Under the pieces are notes generated by a model that was not told where the DNA came from, searched no databases, and saw only the letters and a program-made list of their open reading frames with translations. Below are positions 1,585 to 59,072 of a DNA stretch of 64,000 bases, one piece after another. Where the stretch lies: positions 16,101 to 80,100 of the forward strand of contig JBAXGH010000001.1 of NCBI GenBank assembly GCA_037139515.1. Direction: 5' to 3'. Source of the DNA: a bacterium. Its GTDB lineage: Bacteria; Patescibacteriota; Patescibacteriia; JBAXGH01. The number at the start of each line of letters is the position of its first letter. Within the stretch, counting starts at the first letter, position 1. Both the position numbers and the translations under genes were made by a program.

Positions 1585-2538
1585 TTATTTTTTATTCATT
1601 TCATTTTCCACCACGCGCCCGGCCATGACCTTCAAAAAAGGCAGCATCACATCAAGAAGTAGGACAATTACCACAAGTTGAGGCACAACCTTCTGTTCAC
1701 TGAAAAACTGATCACCAACATATAGCGCGAGCGTAAAATTCATGTACATCATGCAAAGCGCAATCGTGATACGTTCCGAGACATTGCGCCAATAAATCAT
1801 GCGATAAGAAATCCAGACCAGGAATGCGATGTAAAAGAAAGTTATCATGAGCACCACAAAAGTCTTGAGCGACAGATGAAGCGCGGCCGGGTCTGAAGCC
1901 ACAACCGCAGTTTTACTGACAATCGAAGCGATTAGAAGGCCAAAAATCATCACCGATACAGTGCGCCAAATCGAACTTCCGCGCGCAACCAACTTCGGTA
2001 CCAAACGGCTCACGATATACGCAAGAATGAAAGGAATCAAAATCGCGGTCGCGAGTTCTCGAAGCATGAAAATAGCATGAATATGAACTTCAGCACCGGC
2101 GAAAATCTGAAAAACTATCGGCATGGTGAACGGCGCGAGAATACTCGTAACAACTGAAATAACGAGCGCGAGAGAAGTTTTTCCGTGAAAAAAGTCAGCT
2201 ACGAGCGCAATCGTCATACCGGTCGGACCGGCAAGCGCGATCAGAAATGCAAGCGCCCAATGTGGCGCGAAATATTTAAGCGGCAGATAAACCGCGACCG
2301 GCAAAAAAACCAGCATAAAAAAAGCGGCGAGCAGGTTCATTTTCCAATCGAGGGTGTATTTTTTCAAGTCGTTGATATCAATCCGAAGCGCGGAAAGAAA
2401 AAATATCAACTGCAACATGAAGGTGTTCCAGGAATGGAAAGGCTTAAAAAGCTCCGGATAGAAAAGCCCAGCCAAAAGCCCGACAAGTACAATAACAATC
2501 TGATTTTCGACCAGGAATCTCTTTATCGCTGTGAACAT
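1585..2538 (-). CDS. multi-pass membrane transporter, bile acid:sodium symporter (BASS)/AEC-like family
   Basis: About 10 transmembrane segments in 317 aa. The Pro/Gly-rich helix breaks (PTGMTIALVADFF, APFTMPIVFQ) resemble BASS-fold carriers. Confidence 0.4.
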   Translation of the reverse strand: MFTAIKRFLVENQIVIVLVGLLAGLFYPELFKPFHSWNTFMLQLIFFLSALRIDINDLKKYTLDWKMNLLAAFFMLVFLPVAVYLPLKYFAPHWALAFLIALAGPTGMTIALVADFFHGKTSLALVISVVTSILAPFTMPIVFQIFAGAEVHIHAIFMLRELATAILIPFILAYIVSRLVPKLVARGSSIWRTVSVMIFGLLIASIVSKTAVVASDPAALHLSLKTFVVLMITFFYIAFLVWISYRMIYWRNVSERITIALCMMYMNFTLALYVGDQFFSEQKVVPQLVVIVLLLDVMLPFLKVMAGRVVENEMNKK

Positions 2539-2612
2539 ATTTGTACAAATACTTTAGCACTCTTTGACATTCTTCCCCAGCCCCCTAGCGGTGTTTTCGC
2601 GGGTCAGGCACA

Positions 2613-4109
2613 ATGAGTGTCAAGAGAAGCTTGTCGCTCTCGCATATGTCATTCGCCGCTCTAATTTTTCCGCACCAACTTTTTGCCGAGCACCCGGCAC
2701 AAAAAGGCGCCAAGTCTACTTGGCTCTATGAATCACCGCATTTTTTTACCCGTTTCAAATTTCACAAACAGAAGTTGATTTTACACCGCGCTTCGATGAA
2801 GGCCTACGCCTCGAAGCTTCAACACAAGGTCCACGTCAGGTACGCCGACATAAAAAGCTTTCCGACGCTCGCACTGGTACTCAAAGATATCCGAAAACAC
2901 GGATATCGCGAAGTCCACATCGCTGATGTTCATGATTTCGCCCTCGCCGAGGAAATAACTCGCGAAATCAAGAAAGCTAAACTCAAAATCGTCACCCACA
3001 ACTCCCCGGCCTTCCTTCTCTCCACTCGGGAAACCGCTTCCATGCTTGGCGGAAATCCTCACGTGCAGATGTCGGCCTTCTACGCCAAAATGCGCAAGAA
3101 GTTCGGGGTTTTAATTGATAAAAAAGGCGAACCGGTTGGCGGAAGCTGGAGTTTTGAAAATGAAAACCGCAAAAGACTTCCGAAAAGCGCACCGATTCCT
3201 GAATTGCACTATCCAAACCGCTGCGAAACCGCACATGAAGCTTTTGATTACGTTGAAAAGAATTTTAGGCGTCACGGCGGGCACACCGAAGGCTTCATGT
3301 ATCCGACGACTCACACCGAAGCCGCGGCTTGGCTTGAGGATTTTTTGCGCCATCGCCTGGCCGAGTTTGGTGACTATGAAGATGCGATCGCCGAAGGCGA
3401 ACATGCGCTTTTCCATTCCCTGCTTTCCCCGCTTTTAAATATCGGGCTACTCACACCGCGTCAGGTTTTGGACGCCACACTTCATCACGCGCGCCGTCAC
3501 CCGATCAGACTGAATAGTCTTGAAGGTTTTATTCGTCAAATACTCGGTTCACGTGAATTTACACGAGCTATTTACGCTAATCACGGCAAGGAATTGCCGG
3601 AAATGAATTCTCTCCATAATCAGCGCAAGCTGAGCAAGGCTTTTATAAGCGGGACTACCGGTATTATCCCGGTCGATTTGACGATTAAAAAAGTCATGGA
3701 GACAGCTTATTGCCACCATACCGAAAGGCTGACCGTACTTGGAAACTTTTTATTGCTCACCGAAGTCAAGCCGAAGCTGATCCACGCCTGGTTCATGGAA
3801 AATTTTATCGATGCCGCCGAATGGGCCGTGGTTCCGAACGTCTTTGCGCAAAGCCAGTACGTCGACGGCGGATCTATCACCACCAAATTTCACCTAACGA
3901 GTTCAAACTATATTCGCAATATCAGCGACTATCCAAGCGGCGAATGGGAAAAAATCATGGACGCGCTTTTTTGGCGTTTTCTTTCCCGCCATGATGAGAT
4001 ATTAAAAGCTCAACCAAGACTAGCTTCACTATTTGAACAAATGCGAAAATCACCGGAAAGGCTGAAAAAACATATCGAGCTAGCGGACGGATTTTTGAAG
4101 AAATTGTAG
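2613..4109 (+). CDS. cryptochrome/photolyase-family protein (PhrB/FeS-BCP-like, COG3046-type)
   Basis: The N-terminal LIFPHQLF start is typical of COG3046 photolyase-related proteins. About 500 aa. Contains the FAD-binding-region-like HSLLSPLLNIGLL motif. Confidence 0.55.
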   Translation: MSVKRSLSLSHMSFAALIFPHQLFAEHPAQKGAKSTWLYESPHFFTRFKFHKQKLILHRASMKAYASKLQHKVHVRYADIKSFPTLALVLKDIRKHGYREVHIADVHDFALAEEITREIKKAKLKIVTHNSPAFLLSTRETASMLGGNPHVQMSAFYAKMRKKFGVLIDKKGEPVGGSWSFENENRKRLPKSAPIPELHYPNRCETAHEAFDYVEKNFRRHGGHTEGFMYPTTHTEAAAWLEDFLRHRLAEFGDYEDAIAEGEHALFHSLLSPLLNIGLLTPRQVLDATLHHARRHPIRLNSLEGFIRQILGSREFTRAIYANHGKELPEMNSLHNQRKLSKAFISGTTGIIPVDLTIKKVMETAYCHHTERLTVLGNFLLLTEVKPKLIHAWFMENFIDAAEWAVVPNVFAQSQYVDGGSITTKFHLTSSNYIRNISDYPSGEWEKIMDALFWRFLSRHDEILKAQPRLASLFEQMRKSPERLKKHIELADGFLKKL

Positions 4110-4129
4110 CGCCTTTCTCTCGCAAGCAA

Positions 4130-4165
4130 AAACCCCATCGTTGATTATAACGATGGGGTTTTGTA
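4130..4165. terminator. rho-independent terminator after the photolyase-like gene
   Basis: Perfect hairpin AACCCCATCGTT-gattataa-AACGATGGGGTT followed by TTTG. Confidence 0.6.
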
Positions 4166-4210
4166 AGTCGAAAATCGCGGCGTAGAAAGATGATGCGATA
4201 AAGTATGTTT

Positions 4211-4303
4211 GAAGTCGTACGAGCGACATTGGGCGTGTGTGAGCCGGCCAATCAGCCGTATCTTTGGCCGCCACACACACGCCCAAATCAGCGCTCGTGT
4301 AAG
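4211..4303. repeat. family-1 ~80-90 nt imperfect palindromic element, copy A (variant arms, conserved loop AATCAGCCGTATCTTT)
   Basis: The arms TTGGGCGTGTGTGAGCCGGCCAA and TTGGCCGCCACACACACGCCCAA flank a loop that is also found in copies at 5810, 37031 and 44624. Confidence 0.6.
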
Positions 4304-4312
4304 CCCGAAAAG

Positions 4313-5740
4313 TTATTTAGCCGTCTTCATCCATTCAACGAGATGCCGAGTCGCCAAGACATCATCCTCATTATAATCGACGATTTTTTGCAATATCTTT
4401 TTATCTTTTTTCTCCAACCAATCATGATACCAGGCAATCGAATTCGCGCCTGACGCGTCCGAAGAGCGCCACTTGAAACCGAGAAATTTAGCAATATCTT
4501 TGAGAGAATAAAAATATACCGGAAACAAAACCGAACGCGAAACAATCGGCAGCACATCAATCATGATTTCGCGATTACCAAGCACGCGCGCCGCAGTTTT
4601 CGTGATCCCGTATTTTTCCGTGAGCTCTTTTATCACGATAATTTCATACCAACCATAGTGATAAATCGCCAGGTTTTTGTAGCGCCCGATGAAAGCCTGA
4701 AATTCTTTCCAAGCTTTTTCTTCGCCGCTCGGTTTCTTCGCAAGAAAAGGTTTGAACTCAGACTTTCCGTTGCGTACCACCAAGCATCCAAACAAATAAT
4801 GCACGCTGCGCAAAGGATCAGATTCCATGTCGAAATATATTTCCGTTTTGGCTTTTGGAAAATTATATTTCTCAACAATCACGGCTTTTTTATCGCGCAA
4901 AGCCTCAGCCTGAAGCCTTAATCTTTCCAAACGCGGCTGAGTAATCGAAGGAACTTTAGCTTTCAACTTTCCAAGGTTGGCTCCGGCTAGCTTCTTGAGC
5001 TTTCCATAACCACCTTTCAGCAAAGCCTCTCTTTCGTCGGCACGAATCTTGTAAATCAAAGCAACATCGTCTTCGCCCTCGGCATCCAAAATACACTGTT
5101 TGAAATACGGCGACTGCTTACAGGAACCGTAAAGATGCGGTTCCGGCTTCTCCCCGGAAAGCAATTCTTCTACTTCCTTCAATTTTAAGTGATATTTTTC
5201 TTCGTAATCAGCGACGACCAATTCATGCGTGGCGCCAGTTGCATCAATAATATAAGCACGCTCCGGCATCACTCCCTGAGCTTTTTTCAGCAATTCCGAA
5301 TAGAAACACAGCTGCAACCGATGAACCTCTTCAAAGTGAGACGAGCGTTTGATATCGCACGGAACGTACATCCAATCACCCAAATCTGAAGTTCCATCAA
5401 CTCGTTCCAGCAAATCCGGAATCCCGACATAATTCCCATCCATGAGTACGCCGTGATAAATCAACCCAGCACCGTCTTTCATGTGCTTCAGGGTCATTTT
5501 TGCCTGGTCCTCCAGGTCGCCTTCATGTTTGATTTCAACCATGCTGGCTTTTTTCGATTTGAGGGCCACCATTTCTGCCTCATGCAAAAGGCCATCTTTC
5601 CAAAGCTTCTCCGTCATGGCCGAAACCGGCGCGCGTAGTTTGGCATCAGAAAAAGCTTCATGCCAAGGCCAAGCCGGACACTTCGAATATTGATAAAAAG
5701 ATGTGGCTGTGATGCGTATTTCTTGATTTTTCTTTTTCAT
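4313..5740 (-). CDS. RecB-family (Cas4-like PD-(D/E)xK) nuclease fused to an RNase H-like domain, TM0106-type
   Basis: A cysteine cluster typical of Cas4/RecB nucleases (CPAWPWH near the N-terminus, GSCKQSPYFKQC further on). The C-terminal half has the DMESDP...HYLFG pattern of an RNase H-like fold. Assigned by motif similarity only. Confidence 0.4.
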   Translation of the reverse strand: MKKKNQEIRITATSFYQYSKCPAWPWHEAFSDAKLRAPVSAMTEKLWKDGLLHEAEMVALKSKKASMVEIKHEGDLEDQAKMTLKHMKDGAGLIYHGVLMDGNYVGIPDLLERVDGTSDLGDWMYVPCDIKRSSHFEEVHRLQLCFYSELLKKAQGVMPERAYIIDATGATHELVVADYEEKYHLKLKEVEELLSGEKPEPHLYGSCKQSPYFKQCILDAEGEDDVALIYKIRADEREALLKGGYGKLKKLAGANLGKLKAKVPSITQPRLERLRLQAEALRDKKAVIVEKYNFPKAKTEIYFDMESDPLRSVHYLFGCLVVRNGKSEFKPFLAKKPSGEEKAWKEFQAFIGRYKNLAIYHYGWYEIIVIKELTEKYGITKTAARVLGNREIMIDVLPIVSRSVLFPVYFYSLKDIAKFLGFKWRSSDASGANSIAWYHDWLEKKDKKILQKIVDYNEDDVLATRHLVEWMKTAK

Positions 5741-10692: not shown

Positions 10693-10735
10693 ACATCCCT
10701 AATCCCTAAGCTCTAACCTCTAATCCCTAGCCCCA
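10693..10735. repeat. CTCTAAG/CCCTAAC heptamer-like tandem array
   Basis: CATCCCTAATCCCTAAGCTCTAACCTCTAATCCCTAG. Related arrays occur at 51840 and 58998. Confidence 0.5.
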
Positions 10736-25046: not shown

Positions 25047-26078
25047 TTACGATGACCAACAGATAGGAGTAAAACTCGCGATAAGTTTACTCGCATTTCC
25101 GTGTGAGCACAGCCCTAAATACGAAGTTGTTCTTTCTTTAGAAGATTCTTCTAGTAATCTTCGCATCATTCGTTTTTTTGTCGCGGTTCGTAGAATCCGA
25201 TGATCCGAAAAATGCACCCAGCCAAGAAAATCAACCCCCGAAGCCAACGTTTCGATAAACACTTTATCAGGGTGCAGCTGCAACTTTAATCGTCGGCACA
25301 AAAAGTCATCAATCACAGGTAGTAGACATTCAAGATATTGTTTTTCGTGATGCAAAAATACAAAGTCATCCGCATAACGCAGATAATACTTTACCCGTAA
25401 TTCGTGTTTTACAAATTGATCAAATTCATTCATGTACGCATTCGCGAGCAGCTGCGAGGTCAAATTCCCGAGCGGCAGACCAATTCCCCCGTCATTCCCG
25501 CGAAGGCGGGAATCCATTTTAGGGTAACTTGTCACAATAGTCCTAAGGAGATCAAAGATTCGTTCATCAAAAATATAGCGACGTAAAATTCCAAGTAATG
25601 TATTTTGATCAATCGAGGCAAAGAATTTTCGTATATCGCATTTTAAAACCCAACAGGTTCGACGATGATTCAAACTCACTTTCCGCGCAAAATCACGAAA
25701 ACGATTCATGGCCGCGTGCGTTCCCTTCCAATTTCGGCAAGAAAAAGAATCCGCAACAAAGCGCTGGTCGAAAAACGTATACAATTTGCGATATAATGCG
25801 TGATGTAAAACCCGGTCACGAACCGAAGCCTTGTGAATATGACGCCGCTTTGGGTCGTTCACGAAAAAGTCTTGATATATTCCATGACGATATTTAGCTA
25901 CACTTAGTTCCTCATGAAGTGCTAAAATATTGTCTACAAGATGCCGTTCATATTCCAACACATCAGGCTTGCCGTGTTTCCCACAAGAAAATTCGCGCCA
26001 TGCTTCAAATAAATTTTCTAACGAAATAATTTCTTCAAAACTACGTTTAAAGCACCCAATATGGTTACCCCCCCCCAA
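25047..26078 (-). CDS. diversity-generating retroelement (DGR) reverse transcriptase
   Basis: RT motifs including YLRYADDFV (YxDD) and the DGR-specific GLPLGNLTSQ (I/LGxxxSQ in place of the group II QGxxxSP). TR and VR lie 0.4-1.0 kb upstream on the same strand. The start is ambiguous: it is called as TTG inside a G9 run. Confidence 0.85.
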   Translation of the reverse strand: MGGGNHIGCFKRSFEEIISLENLFEAWREFSCGKHGKPDVLEYERHLVDNILALHEELSVAKYRHGIYQDFFVNDPKRRHIHKASVRDRVLHHALYRKLYTFFDQRFVADSFSCRNWKGTHAAMNRFRDFARKVSLNHRRTCWVLKCDIRKFFASIDQNTLLGILRRYIFDERIFDLLRTIVTSYPKMDSRLRGNDGGIGLPLGNLTSQLLANAYMNEFDQFVKHELRVKYYLRYADDFVFLHHEKQYLECLLPVIDDFLCRRLKLQLHPDKVFIETLASGVDFLGWVHFSDHRILRTATKKRMMRRLLEESSKERTTSYLGLCSHGNASKLIASFTPICWSS

Positions 26079-46786: not shown

Positions 46787-51153
<4,367 letters not shown>

Positions 51154-51164
51154 TATTTACAAAC

Positions 51165-51187
51165 TACCGCCTTGTGGCGGTTTTTTG
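51165..51187 (+). terminator. rho-independent terminator after gyrB
   Basis: CCGCC-ttgtg-GCGG followed by TTTTTTG. Confidence 0.6.
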
Positions 51188-51190
51188 TTG

Positions 51191-51270
51191 CCGTCATTCC
51201 CGAAATTTGAGCACAAATTGTCGGGAATCCATTTTCTTCAAATAGACTCCCGCCTTCGCGGGAATGACGG
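51191..51270. repeat. family-2(i) repeats: variant copy with a 20-nt palindromic insert, plus an inverted canonical copy GTCATTCCCGCGAAGGCGGGAGTC
   Basis: Other copies at 25491..25518 (inside the RT CDS) and 52842..52874. Confidence 0.65.
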
Positions 51271-51354
51271 AAGGGGCAAAAAAACCGTTTACTTAATCAG
51301 AGACCGGTGCTACATTCCGAAAACAGCTCAGCCCTTTTCGGAAAGGAGCAACCC

Positions 51355-51564
51355 ATGACGTTCCTCGGAGCCTCAAGTGGAAACGGCGAATGTCACTGCA
51401 TCTGCCATAGCAAGCCAGAAGGCGTCATAAAGCACATGCGCGCCTGTTGCGACAAGTGCCCATTTTGCGGAAAGCACATCTCGAATGCGAGACGGCACGA
51501 TCCGGTCTGTGAAAAGAACCCGGCGAACCAAAGAAAGCCAGCGAGCGGAGGAGAAAAGAAATGA
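51355..51564 (+). CDS. small Cys/His-rich protein (CxCxCH...H...CCxxCPxCGKH) with a basic tail
   Basis: SD AAGGAG 7 nt upstream. 69 aa with 7 Cys in a ~30-aa core. Confidence 0.5.
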   Translation: MTFLGASSGNGECHCICHSKPEGVIKHMRACCDKCPFCGKHISNARRHDPVCEKNPANQRKPASGGEKK

Positions 51565-51827
51565 GCGGACTCGAAGATTTTGCTCTCGGACTTTGCGATT
51601 GCGCCTGCCACCGCGGACCAAAAGGCTTCGTGAACCACATCACGGCCTGCTGCTCACGCTGTCCGCATTGCGGCAAGAATGTGAAGTTCAGGCTTTTCTT
51701 CACGAACCAAACTGCAAGCAGAACCCGGCAAACCAGAAACCAGAAGAGCCGCCAAAAGAAGGCGGTTGACGCCCTAGCCCCAGCGTGTTATCCTATGTTT
51801 ATTGGATGCCCGCCGGGGCATTTTTAA
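51561..51827 (+). CDS. paralogous small Cys/His-rich protein, with an apparent +2 frameshift relative to the first copy after CGKN
   Basis: SD GGAGGA. The core CDCACH...H...CCSRCPHCGKN aligns with the first copy. In frame +3 the tail HEPNCKQNPANQKPEEPPKEGG aligns with the first copy's HDPVCEKNPANQRKPASGGEKK. Confidence 0.45.
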   Translation: MSGLEDFALGLCDCACHRGPKGFVNHITACCSRCPHCGKNVKFRLFFTNQTASRTRQTRNQKSRQKKAVDALAPACYPMFIGCPPGHF

Positions 51828-51839
51828 ATAGCGAAAAAT

Positions 51840-51910
51840 AGAGATTAGAGCTTAGGGTTTAGAGATTAGTGACATCCCTAACCTCTAAGCTCTAACCTCT
51901 AAGTTCTACC
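51840..51910. repeat. palindromic array of CTCTAAG/CTCTAAC-like heptamers upstream of secE
   Basis: GAGATTAGAGCTTAGGGTTTAGAGATTAG-tgacatc-CCTAACCTCTAAGCTCTAACCTCTAAG. Confidence 0.55.
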
Positions 51911-51914
51911 CCAT

Positions 51915-52118
51915 ATGACCAAATACGTTGATTCGATTGTGAACTACTTCAAAGACGCCAAGCTCGAACTCATGAAGGTTTCCTGGCCTTCAAAGCATGA
52001 TTTGACCCGCTACAGCGTCATCGTCATCGCCGCTTCGATTATCGTCGCTGCTTCTTTCGGCGCGCTCGATTTCGGACTTGCGAAGGGACTCAACAAACTC
52101 ATCGATTTAGTTTCTTAA
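51915..52118 (+). CDS. secE: preprotein translocase subunit SecE
   Basis: 67 aa with a single C-terminal TM helix. Positioned immediately before nusG. Confidence 0.8.
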   Translation: MTKYVDSIVNYFKDAKLELMKVSWPSKHDLTRYSVIVIAASIIVAASFGALDFGLAKGLNKLIDLVS

Positions 52119-52142
52119 ATCGAATTTTAACGCACTTTAGCT

Positions 52143-52688
52143 ATGCCTAAGCAAACAAGTAATTACGGCCGTCGCTGGTATGCCATCCATACCTACTCCG
52201 GCTACGAAGAGAACGTCGAAGACAACCTTCGCAAGCGTATCGACTCGATGGACAAAGAGAAAGAAATTTTCAACATTCTGATTCCGAAAGAAAAGAAAAT
52301 CAAAATCAAGAACGGCAAACGTCGCGTGGTTGAGGAAAAAATCTTCCCGGGCTATGTCTTGGTTGAAATGATCGTGACGGATGATTCCTGGTACGTTGTG
52401 CGCAATACCCCAAACGTGACCGGTTTCATCGGCACAGGTACGACGCCGACTCCCGTTTCGGAAGACGAAATCAAGGCGCTTCAGTCACGCATGGGCGTCA
52501 ATGAGCCGCAATTCAAACTTGATGTTACGGTTGATTCTCCGGTTCGCATTTCCGACGGCCCATTCAAAGGCTTCGAAGGAAAGGTTTCGGAAATCGACGA
52601 AGCTCGCGGCAAAGTCAAGGTGTTGGTCAATATGTTCGGTCGCGAAACTCCAATCGAACTCGACTTCTTGCAGGTTAAGAAGATATAG
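52143..52688 (+). CDS. nusG: transcription termination/antitermination factor NusG
   Basis: RRWYAIHTYSGYE NGN start and the C-terminal KOW motif GPFKGFEGKV. Confidence 0.9.
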   Translation: MPKQTSNYGRRWYAIHTYSGYEENVEDNLRKRIDSMDKEKEIFNILIPKEKKIKIKNGKRRVVEEKIFPGYVLVEMIVTDDSWYVVRNTPNVTGFIGTGTTPTPVSEDEIKALQSRMGVNEPQFKLDVTVDSPVRISDGPFKGFEGKVSEIDEARGKVKVLVNMFGRETPIELDFLQVKKI

Positions 52689-52699
52689 CGCTCGACACT

Positions 52700-52830
52700 A
52701 CAAAATAAAACACGGGTCCTGGGTCGGTATGTGTTGCGCGTTCGAGACGGGACTGTCCCCAAAGCCGCAGGGGACTGTCCCTCCGAACGCGTAACACGGG
52801 GCCCCTCCCACCCGTGCTTTATTTTATACA
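52700..52830. repeat. ~130-nt imperfect palindrome (outer AAAATAAAACACGGGT/ACCCGTGCTTTATTTT, inner GGGACTGTCCCC x2)
   Basis: Read directly in the nusG-rplK spacer. Confidence 0.5.
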
Positions 52831-52934
52831 TTCGAACCCCCATCGTCATTCCCGCGAAGGCAGGAATCCATTCTAGTCCCAGTTTCGCGCGAAAATGAAT
52901 TGCCTGCCGAAAAAGGGGCCCCTTTCGTAATGGA

Positions 52935-58997: not shown

Positions 58998-59072
58998 CGC
59001 AGAGCAAGAGCTTAGGGCTTAAAGCTTAGTGATATCTCTAAGCTCTAATCTCTAAACTCTAAGCTCTAATCC
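58998..59072. repeat. palindromic array of CTCTAAG-like heptamers
   Basis: AGAGCTTAGGGCTTAAAGCTTAG-tgatat-CTCTAAGCTCTAATCTCTAAACTCTAAGCTCTAATCCC. Confidence 0.55.

Follow-up and report, generated by a model that had tools for sequence, protein, structure and literature searches.

A tandem pair of Cys/His-rich mini-genes between gyrB and secE of a Patescibacteriota genome: members of an unannotated C2HC-finger family, the second most likely disrupted by a frame change

We analyzed a stretch of 64,000 nucleotides (nt) from a Patescibacteriota genome (contig JBAXGH010000001.1, positions 16,101 to 80,100; hereafter “the window”, in whose own numbering all positions are given), in which two small Cys/His-rich open reading frames (ORFs), ORF1 and ORF2, lie back to back between gyrB and secE. 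Both ORFs belong to a family of small proteins, about 55 to 85 amino acids (aa) long, that lacks annotation and is encoded on Patescibacteria chromosomes and on phage contigs. The pair has been inserted, as an accessory element, where the otherwise conserved gyrB-secE-nusG order is variable. The overall explanation that fits best, and that we regard as probable, is that the two genes form a pair of C2HC-finger family members within this accessory insertion, that the second copy is disrupted, and that the mini-proteins would act as small zinc-stabilized binding modules.

The arrangement of the pair can be read directly from the nucleotides, as an earlier interpretation made without database searches (the sequence-only reading) had done: two back-to-back ORFs, each preceded by a Shine-Dalgarno sequence, with the stop of the first overlapping the start of the second. 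The features are as follows.

51343..51348, forward strand: Shine-Dalgarno sequence AAGGAG of ORF1, 6 nt 5' of its ATG (sequence reading)
51355..51564, forward strand: mini-gene 1 (ORF1), 69 aa, from ATG at 51355 to TGA at 51562-51564; an intact family member
51547..51553, forward strand: Shine-Dalgarno sequence GGAGGAG of ORF2, 7 nt 5' of its ATG and within the end of ORF1 (sequence reading)
51561..51827, forward strand: ORF2 in frame 0, 88 aa; the final 49 residues show no family similarity, and the frame runs through a terminator hairpin
51561..51677, forward strand: the certain frame-0 part of mini-gene 2, with the N-terminal module (N-module) CDCACH…H…CC and the first two finger ligands, CPHCGK

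The ATG of ORF2 (51561-51563) overlaps the ORF1 stop codon as ATGA, and the two genes are translationally coupled through this overlap. A start of ORF1 at 51307, as given earlier, corresponds to an in-frame GTG farther upstream; the ATG at 51355, which bears the Shine-Dalgarno sequence, is the likelier one. The cores quoted at that stage, CHCICH-x12-CCDKCPFCGKH for ORF1 and CDCACH-x12-CCSRCPHCGKN for ORF2, are exact. With the frame of ORF2 joined, the copies are 46% identical, and their Cys/His scaffold is seen again in 125 database clusters; therefore, these are not chance ORFs, and the description of the pair as real tandem paralogous mini-genes is borne out. In one collection, which covers 153 billion gene positions, no entry has the sequence of either product, so gene callers have missed both.

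The family was delineated with a profile built from the two copies, which was used for an exhaustive HMMER search of 1.84 billion representatives at a cutoff of E ≤ 1e-3. This search for homologs of the Cys core returned 125 cluster representatives (best E-value, 7e-13), most of them 55 to 85 aa long and some with two domains, sharing the scaffold C-x-C-x-C-H…H-x3-C-C-x2-C-x2-C…H-x3-C/H. A scan of metagenome contigs with a degenerate pattern gave four loci with clear homologs, often two or three per locus. We define the family, which has no public name, by an alignment of 56 sequences (A2). The residues H27, C31, C32, and C38 do not vary in this alignment, and conservation reaches 90% or more at C13, C15, C17, H18, C35, and H48. 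Of the 48 members that match the pattern test, 39 have Cys and 9 have His as the last ligand; the linker between C38 and H48 mostly has 10 or 11 residues. ORF1 scores 63.8 bits against a family hidden Markov model (HMM) built without the window sequences. Its N-module ligands are C13, C15, C17, H18, H27, C31, and C32, and its C2HC finger ligands are C35, C38, H48, and C52, followed by the tail CEKNPANQ. Both copies fit the N-module pattern C-x-C-x-C-H-x5-11-H-x3-C-C, ORF1 as CHCICH-x8-H-x3-CC and ORF2 as CDCACH-x8-H-x3-CC.

The statement that neither copy resembles L33, L36, or any recognized family is confirmed by curated libraries, since no model in Pfam, NCBIfam, or PHROG covers the domain. 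Specifically, no Pfam or PHROG model matches the window proteins, and their comparison with Pfam gave no hit even at E ≤ 10, zf-C2HC_2 (PF13913) and zf_UBZ (PF18439) included. The 56 members, compared with Pfam and NCBIfam, fell into no convincing curated family and gave only stray weak L24e or L37ae hits in single members; among ten members that were looked up, one has a name at its source, “hypothetical protein” of Candidatus Buchananbacteria. ORF1 alone retrieved no family member in a word-indexed protein search or in a scan of species-genome contigs, and even the 56-sequence alignment recovered only 7 members in the word-indexed search. Against viral contigs, the two-copy alignment found nothing and a 12-sequence subset succeeded, while tblastn with a frame-repaired ORF2 and with family member P0003 gave no match in 50,697 deposited phage genomes. 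No paper came up in a literature search on C2HC zinc fingers in the candidate phyla radiation, and a broader search yielded nothing of relevance. Because there is no curated model and the literature searches came back empty, the combination of N-module and finger, as a free-standing family common to Patescibacteria and phages, appears to be undescribed, the C-terminal finger itself being already a known kind.

Judged by its sequence, the C-terminal half of the domain is a C2HC finger of the form C-x2-C-x9-12-H-x3-C/H. When compared with the PDB, the family profile matched FLN29/TRAFD1, a C2HC/C3H protein, and the UBZ of RAD18 at E-values from 6e-4 to 2e-3, always over profile positions 32 to 63. 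Two single proteins also pass Pfam thresholds: P0003 exceeds the zf_UBZ cutoff (26.2 versus 25.6 bits), and P0007 reaches the Pfam cutoff (27.6 bits versus 27). In an AlphaFold2 (AF2) model computed from the family alignment, residues 31 to 60 have a predicted local distance difference test (pLDDT) score of 85 to 88 and form short paired strands (33-34 and 41-42) and a helix (45-51). In 17 of 98 members (about one in five), both window copies included, the finger continues as H-x3-C-x2-N-P-x-N. The likeness of this half to UBZ, TRAF-type, and zf-C2HC_2 fingers is weak, and its likeness to the fingers of Seg-like endonucleases is clear: hhalign gave a probability of 98.5% against the five repeats of P0007 and the two fingers of P0072, with the reservation, a point against our explanation, that both proteins had been chosen for hitting the profile and that the E-value is therefore optimistic.

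P0007 deserves a description of its own. It is a protein of 293 aa (contig L102, 5001-5882) in which a SegE-like GIY-YIG domain precedes five C2HC fingers of the type “H-x3-C-x2-NPN”, and its gene sits between gp25 and gp13 homologs on a 172-kb T4-like phage contig. Free-standing homing endonucleases of the Seg type classically reside in this setting, and P0007 looks like such an enzyme with an unusual zinc-finger DNA-binding array.

The N-module, C-x-C-x-C-H-x5-11-H-x3-C-C with seven ligands, is fused directly to the C2HC finger and found no match in any library that we tried. The idea that it is an internal duplicate of the C-terminal half was rejected (hhalign probability, 0.6%). The proteins P0097, P0101, and P0030 have this module but no finger; P0030 carries the module twice in one chain, and P0101 joins it to what appears, from its sequence, to be a C-terminal hydrophobic membrane-spanning tail.

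In contrast to the intact finger of ORF1, that of ORF2 is interrupted by a change of reading frame, for which three further features matter.

51678..51700, forward strand: frame-change zone, within which the frame must shift by -1 (aat gtg aag ttc agg ctt ttc ttc); includes the T-run 51694-51697
51701..51769, forward strand: conserved mini-gene 2 tail, HEPNCKQNPANQKPEEPPKEGG and its stop codon, in the -1 frame (ORF 51485..51769); carries the last two finger ligands (H and C) and the NPxN motif
51804..51829, forward strand: terminator-like hairpin GGAUGCCC-GCCG-GGGCAUUU with U-rich sequence; RNA fold -14.6 kcal/mol, z -3.0

As the sequence-only reading had recognized, the ORF1 tail, HDPVCEKNPANQRKPASGGEKK, has its ORF2 counterpart solely in the -1 frame, which stops at 51767-51769. 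The conserved tail of ORF2 (HEPNCKQNPANQ…) lies in this frame, and ORF2 read in the -1 frame ends …QAFLHEPNCKQNPANQKPEEPPKEGG at the same stop, whereas the frame-0 continuation to 51827 reads ...NVKFRLFFTNQTASRTRQ.... The tails of the two copies are 74% identical in DNA. The copy-to-copy register is 203 nt at the CPxCGK cysteine (sequence count) and 205 nt at the tails (repeat D1); therefore, ORF2 has 2 nt more than ORF1 between those points. The earlier claim of a 2-nt indel thus holds as far as the difference goes, although the distances between the Cys codons are, by our count, 41 and 39 nt and not 47 and 45. As to its cause, we prefer the loss of 1 nt from a 10-residue linker over an insertion of 2 nt, because the family linkers are mostly of 10 to 11 residues.

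The scores against the HMM built without the window sequences illustrate the effect of the frame change. ORF2 in frame 0 scores 60.9 bits; with the -1-frame tail joined, it scores 71.6 bits under the 2-nt insertion model and 73.4 bits with an early 1-nt deletion, and the top score, 73.9 bits, is obtained with a slip or deletion at the T-run 51694-51697 (CGKNVKFRLF-LHEPNC, linker of 10). Frame repair, thus, raises the score by 11 to 13 bits. In frame 0, ORF2 lacks the last two finger ligands, H and C. The pattern C-x2-C-x9-12-H-x3-C/H lies in one frame in ORF1 (linker of 9) and in ORF2 only after the -1 frame change, and the finger is in frame in all inspected family members that carry it. Altogether, copy 2 is most likely a newly disrupted paralog and copy 1 is intact. 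In this scenario, 1 nt would have been lost recently from within the finger of copy 2, between CPHCGK and H-x3-C, a candidate site being the T-run 51694-51697; the loss would put the final pair of ligands and the NPxN tail out of frame with what precedes them, and the frame-0 product would retain the N-module and half of the finger. The terminator-like hairpin starts about 35 nt past the -1-frame stop, and frame-0 ORF2 reads through it. The hairpin was not listed by a simple terminator scan; it is probably the mini-gene cassette's own terminator, and its placement fits the -1-frame stop as the original gene end.

Two other accounts of the frame change have to be weighed against a genuine deletion. 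Both copies may be intact in the organism, the frame change being a sequencing or consensus artifact (one T missing at 51694-51697, or a chimeric strain consensus); we consider this unlikely, yet it is the more serious of the two. The tail in the -1 frame shows no damage and agrees with the family consensus at each key residue, which is where the gain of 11 to 13 bits comes from, a single-base correction restores the typical 10-residue linker, and the window derives from a metagenome-type assembly. On the other hand, a run of four T is short for a homopolymer error, an intact tail is equally predicted by a very recent real deletion, and a separately built Logan contig (L001, 1836 nt, run SRR7053541) is 100% identical to window positions 50940-52775, frame change included; this contig is perhaps from the same reads as the window, so that it opposes an assembler artifact and not a read-level or consensus error.

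The second account, programmed -1 ribosomal frameshifting to produce full-length ORF2, is very improbable. It would have tRNA-Phe slip from UUC to UUU at C-UUU-UC (51693-51698) and would make two isoforms, a basic-tailed truncated form and one with the complete finger. The shift needed is indeed -1, and P-site re-pairing from UUC to UUU is possible at 51694-51698, with a product, CGKNVKFRLF-LHEPNC, whose linker of 10 is family-typical and whose HMM score is the best of all. However, a canonical X-XXY-YYZ heptamer is absent from aag ttc agg ctt ttc ttc acg, leaving a single-tRNA UUC-to-UUU slip as the only option; the segment 51660-51770 folds no better than shuffled sequences (z -0.84), so there is no significant downstream structure; the inspected finger-bearing homologs encode the finger in frame; and the T-run is too short for transcriptional slippage. 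A recent deletion in copy 2, therefore, is the reading that we retain.

We next consider the locus. The genes flanking the pair are housekeeping genes: gyrB (with an intein), secE, nusG, rplK, ftsW, an L25/TL5-family ribosomal protein gene, and pheST. The neighboring NusG is 68 to 82% identical to NusG of Patescibacteria metagenome-assembled genomes (MAGs) of Uhrbacteria, Magasanikbacteria, and others, and 80 syntenic relatives were gathered by a NusG contig search. In 49 of these 80, nusG is preceded by gyrB at a distance of no more than 5 kb. At the 33 loci where both gyrB and secE were detected, the median distance between them is 227 nt, with 18 of these loci at 256 nt or less, compared with 761 nt in the window. 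A mini-gene homolog was found in none of the 80 loci by tblastn, regular expression, or six-frame HMM scan. Since none of the syntenic relatives carries the pair there, it is an accessory insertion. Conservation of the ORFs in related genomes, which the sequence-only reading had treated as decisive, is therefore borne out in one sense and not in another: the ORFs are missing from the same locus in the 80 relatives, but the family is kept at other loci in Patescibacteria and phages.

Other relatives carry different sequences at this junction. The locus L080 has two small ORFs between gyrB and secE that resemble, from their translations, a HicAB-type toxin-antitoxin pair (3602-4300); L072 has a possible methyltransferase, likewise from translations (2474-4798); and L036 has an ORF of 448 aa (3204-4784). 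The gyrB-secE junction in related Patescibacteria looks like a recurrent hot spot of unrelated insertions.

These comparisons bear on whether the pair has a functional tie to its neighbors, either to gyrase, in the manner of YacG, or to the translation/secretion operon, as a divergent L33/L36-like zinc ribbon. The pair lies directly downstream of gyrB and upstream of secE, the gene rpmG stands upstream of secE in many bacteria, and YacG-gyrase (4tma, chain 4tma_J) is among the non-significant Foldseek hits (E-value, 6.5). Nevertheless, we give such a tie very little weight: the comparison with Pfam, even at E ≤ 10, brought up neither YacG nor L33 or L36, members elsewhere do not adjoin gyrB or secE, the 80 relatives of the same synteny do without the mini-genes, and the junction takes unrelated inserts in other genomes.

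Elsewhere, family members occupy a variety of places. On Patescibacteria chromosomes, members lie at the glyA-thyA junction in L082 and L085, next to smpB and a small GIY-YIG gene in L084, 3' of rnc in L089, and between truB and uvrC in L100 (a Buchananbacteria MAG). Three phage-like contigs with PHROG matches (L083, L086, and L095) carry members, and three members are in IMG/VR contigs of 69, 155, and 430 kb. No partner gene is conserved among the loci examined. Given this distribution, the pair is possibly a cassette of phage or mobile origin. Tandem copies recur, with two in L082 and three in L083, and two-domain proteins include P0001, P0003, P0004, P0023, P0044, P0057, and P0113; the tandem genes of the window, L082, and L083 mirror these two-domain fusions, and the copies, therefore, probably work together. 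Two further members have noteworthy contexts. P0028 is a fusion of the full domain with a cREC_REC receiver-like domain. In L084 (5684-6144), the member stands directly 3' of an 85-aa ORF that, by an N-terminal reading, encodes a stand-alone GIY-YIG protein; this is either a coincidence or a split nuclease-plus-finger.

What might such proteins do? The proposal of metal-binding mini-proteins, the first of three in the sequence-only reading, is almost certainly right, given the 11 conserved Cys/His positions and the C2HC finger in the C-terminal half, from which metal binding is deduced; the metal is most likely structural, with two or three Zn2+ per domain. Nucleic-acid binding is our leading guess for the role of the mini-proteins, because the finger is homologous to homing-endonuclease repeats and the window copies are basic (pI of 9.05 and 8.16). 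The second proposal, an anti-sigma zinc ribbon, has to be given up, as there is no match to zf-HC2 (the ZAS domain, H-x3-C-x2-C) and no sigma-factor family among the flanking genes scanned.

The third, a precursor of a modified peptide, fares no better, with no maturase here or at homologous loci and with a whole Cys/His scaffold conserved instead of a leader and a core. Small, Cys-rich, tandem paralogous ORFs would suit a ribosomally synthesized and post-translationally modified peptide (RiPP), for example a Cys-rich one of the ranthipeptide/SCIFF kind. Against this, no maturase, protease, or exporter is found among the neighbors (gyrB, secE, nusG, rplK, ftsW, and pheST), the flanks at homologous loci are housekeeping genes as well, the scaffold is conserved over its full length with a predicted finger fold and His ligands at fixed spacing, and no SCIFF or other precursor model of NCBIfam or Pfam was found among the 56 members. 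Taken together, these observations leave the RiPP explanation next to no credence.

Metal buffering or storage, by a metallothionein-like protein or a zinc chaperone, is improbable, though less so than the RiPP or gyrase-linked explanations. The dense conserved Cys/His residues (11 in about 40 residues) would suit it, and so would the wide range of net charge across the family, which counts against a single nucleic-acid target. However, fixed ligand spacing and a predicted finger fold are typical of structural zinc; the family occurs in phage genomes, is fused to cREC_REC in P0028, and has related fingers behind a GIY-YIG nuclease domain; and no metallothionein family is among the Pfam matches. 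As such, small zinc-stabilized binding modules remain our preferred reading.

Several points weigh against the overall explanation. For every member, both the metal content and the binding partner are inferred from sequence. The family is not uniformly basic, with a median K+R-D-E of -1 and a median pI of 6.4 over 98 members; this heterogeneous charge weakens a general DNA-binding reading and leaves room for protein binding. The N-terminal half of the AF2 model is moderately confident (block pLDDT, 52 to 76), and whole-domain fold searches gave no significant match. The distribution of the family is what suggests phage or mobile origin, and no integrase, target-site duplication, or transposase flanks the pair. 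Finally, the frameshift could be a read or consensus error, the second assembly perhaps sharing the window's sequencing run.

A bolder extension, which we think doubtful, is that the N-module is a previously undescribed metal-cluster fold and that the family is a phage-derived effector set for phage-Patescibacteria conflict or host takeover. If this were true, the effectors might be, for example, small inhibitors or adaptors directed against host nucleic-acid machinery, and the jumbo-phage contigs, the tandem diverging paralogs, and the scattered insertions at housekeeping junctions would all be accounted for. A rarer and remote addition to the effector reading would have copy 2 decoded through -1 frameshifting into two isoforms.

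The surroundings of the pair hold further features. It is bracketed by the gyrB terminator and a repetitive extragenic palindromic (REP)-like repeat upstream and by the terminator-like hairpin downstream, and a stem-loop precedes ORF1.

51166..51191, forward strand: gyrB intrinsic terminator, stem ACCGCC/GGCGGT and T-run (terminator scan); RNA fold -15.5 kcal/mol, z -4.3; delimits the inserted interval on the upstream side
51191..51270, no strand assigned: REP-like element with perfect 12-nt inverted arms, CCGTCATTCCCG / CGGGAATGACGG, and 56 nt between the arms
51306..51353, forward strand: stem-loop (inverted repeat I2) that partly pairs the ORF1 Shine-Dalgarno region; RNA fold -18.4 kcal/mol, z -2.9

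The stem-loop at 51306-51353 may gate or modulate translation of mini-gene 1. The core of the REP-like element, GCGGGAATGAC, is also present at 25491-25501 and 52845-52855, with four matches in the window versus 1.6 expected. Directly upstream of secE, at 51839-51908, stands a near-perfect long hairpin of CTCTAAG/CTCTAAC-type units (RNA fold -30.6 kcal/mol, z -5.6), related copies of which are found at 10703-10724 and 59035-59063, where chance would predict none; it looks like a dispersed repeat of the REP or miniature inverted-repeat transposable element (MITE) kind. A candidate promoter, a sigma-70-like site at 51766-51794 just 5' of the terminator-like hairpin, was dismissed as being at chance level (one found, 0.9 expected), and a comparison of 51100-51950 with Rfam gave sub-threshold chance hits only. 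Upstream of the pair, gyrB (47830-51153) is interrupted by an intein, its 1107-aa product matching Pfam Intein_splicing over residues 444 to 866. The central part of the intein shows an HNH-like motif, so that a homing endonuclease of the HNH type is probably present within it.

Short unannotated genes abound in the small genomes of Patescibacteria, and a recurrent family of at least 125 clusters, shared with large phages, gives annotators a model to work with. Its N-terminal metal-binding module, for which no known counterpart was found, is a candidate for structural work, and the presence of the family flags accessory insertions, which may derive from phages, at conserved junctions such as gyrB-secE. 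Small hypothetical proteins with zinc fingers are no rarity. Unless a specific function emerges for the N-module or for the phage link, the finding is of incremental value; it has no bearing on a long-standing open question.

Comparison with known systems places the mini-proteins between several groups. The zf-C2HC_2 (PF13913), UBZ4-type zf_UBZ (PF18439, RAD18), and TRAF-type FLN29/TRAFD1 (2d9k) fingers have the same ligand pattern as the C-terminal half, for which a strand-strand-helix arrangement is likewise predicted. These, however, are eukaryotic protein- or ubiquitin-binding modules within large proteins, whereas the mini-proteins are free-standing, of about 65 aa, and found in bacteria and phages, and their finger is joined to the extra seven-ligand CxCxCH…H…CC module. 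YacG, a gyrase inhibitor of about 60 aa, is also small and zinc-binding, and the window genes adjoin gyrB; however, YacG has a Cys4 finger, the mini-proteins have no sequence similarity or significant structural similarity to it, and their family is not linked to gyrB elsewhere. The SmtA/BmtA metallothioneins and SCIFF-type precursors share shortness, Cys richness, and CxC motifs with the mini-proteins, which differ from them by conserved His at finger-like spacing, fold-like conservation over the whole length, no model hit, and no maturase gene nearby. The Seg-like GIY-YIG endonucleases P0007 and P0072 are alike in the finger and the NPxN tail, and both groups occur in phage genomes. These enzymes lack the N-terminal CxCxCH module, the fingers of P0007 are arrayed behind a nuclease domain, and the mini-proteins, unlike them, have no catalytic domain. 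By analogy, the Seg-like repeats, whose own DNA binding is itself presumed, offer the best lead for a nucleic-acid-binding role of the mini-proteins.

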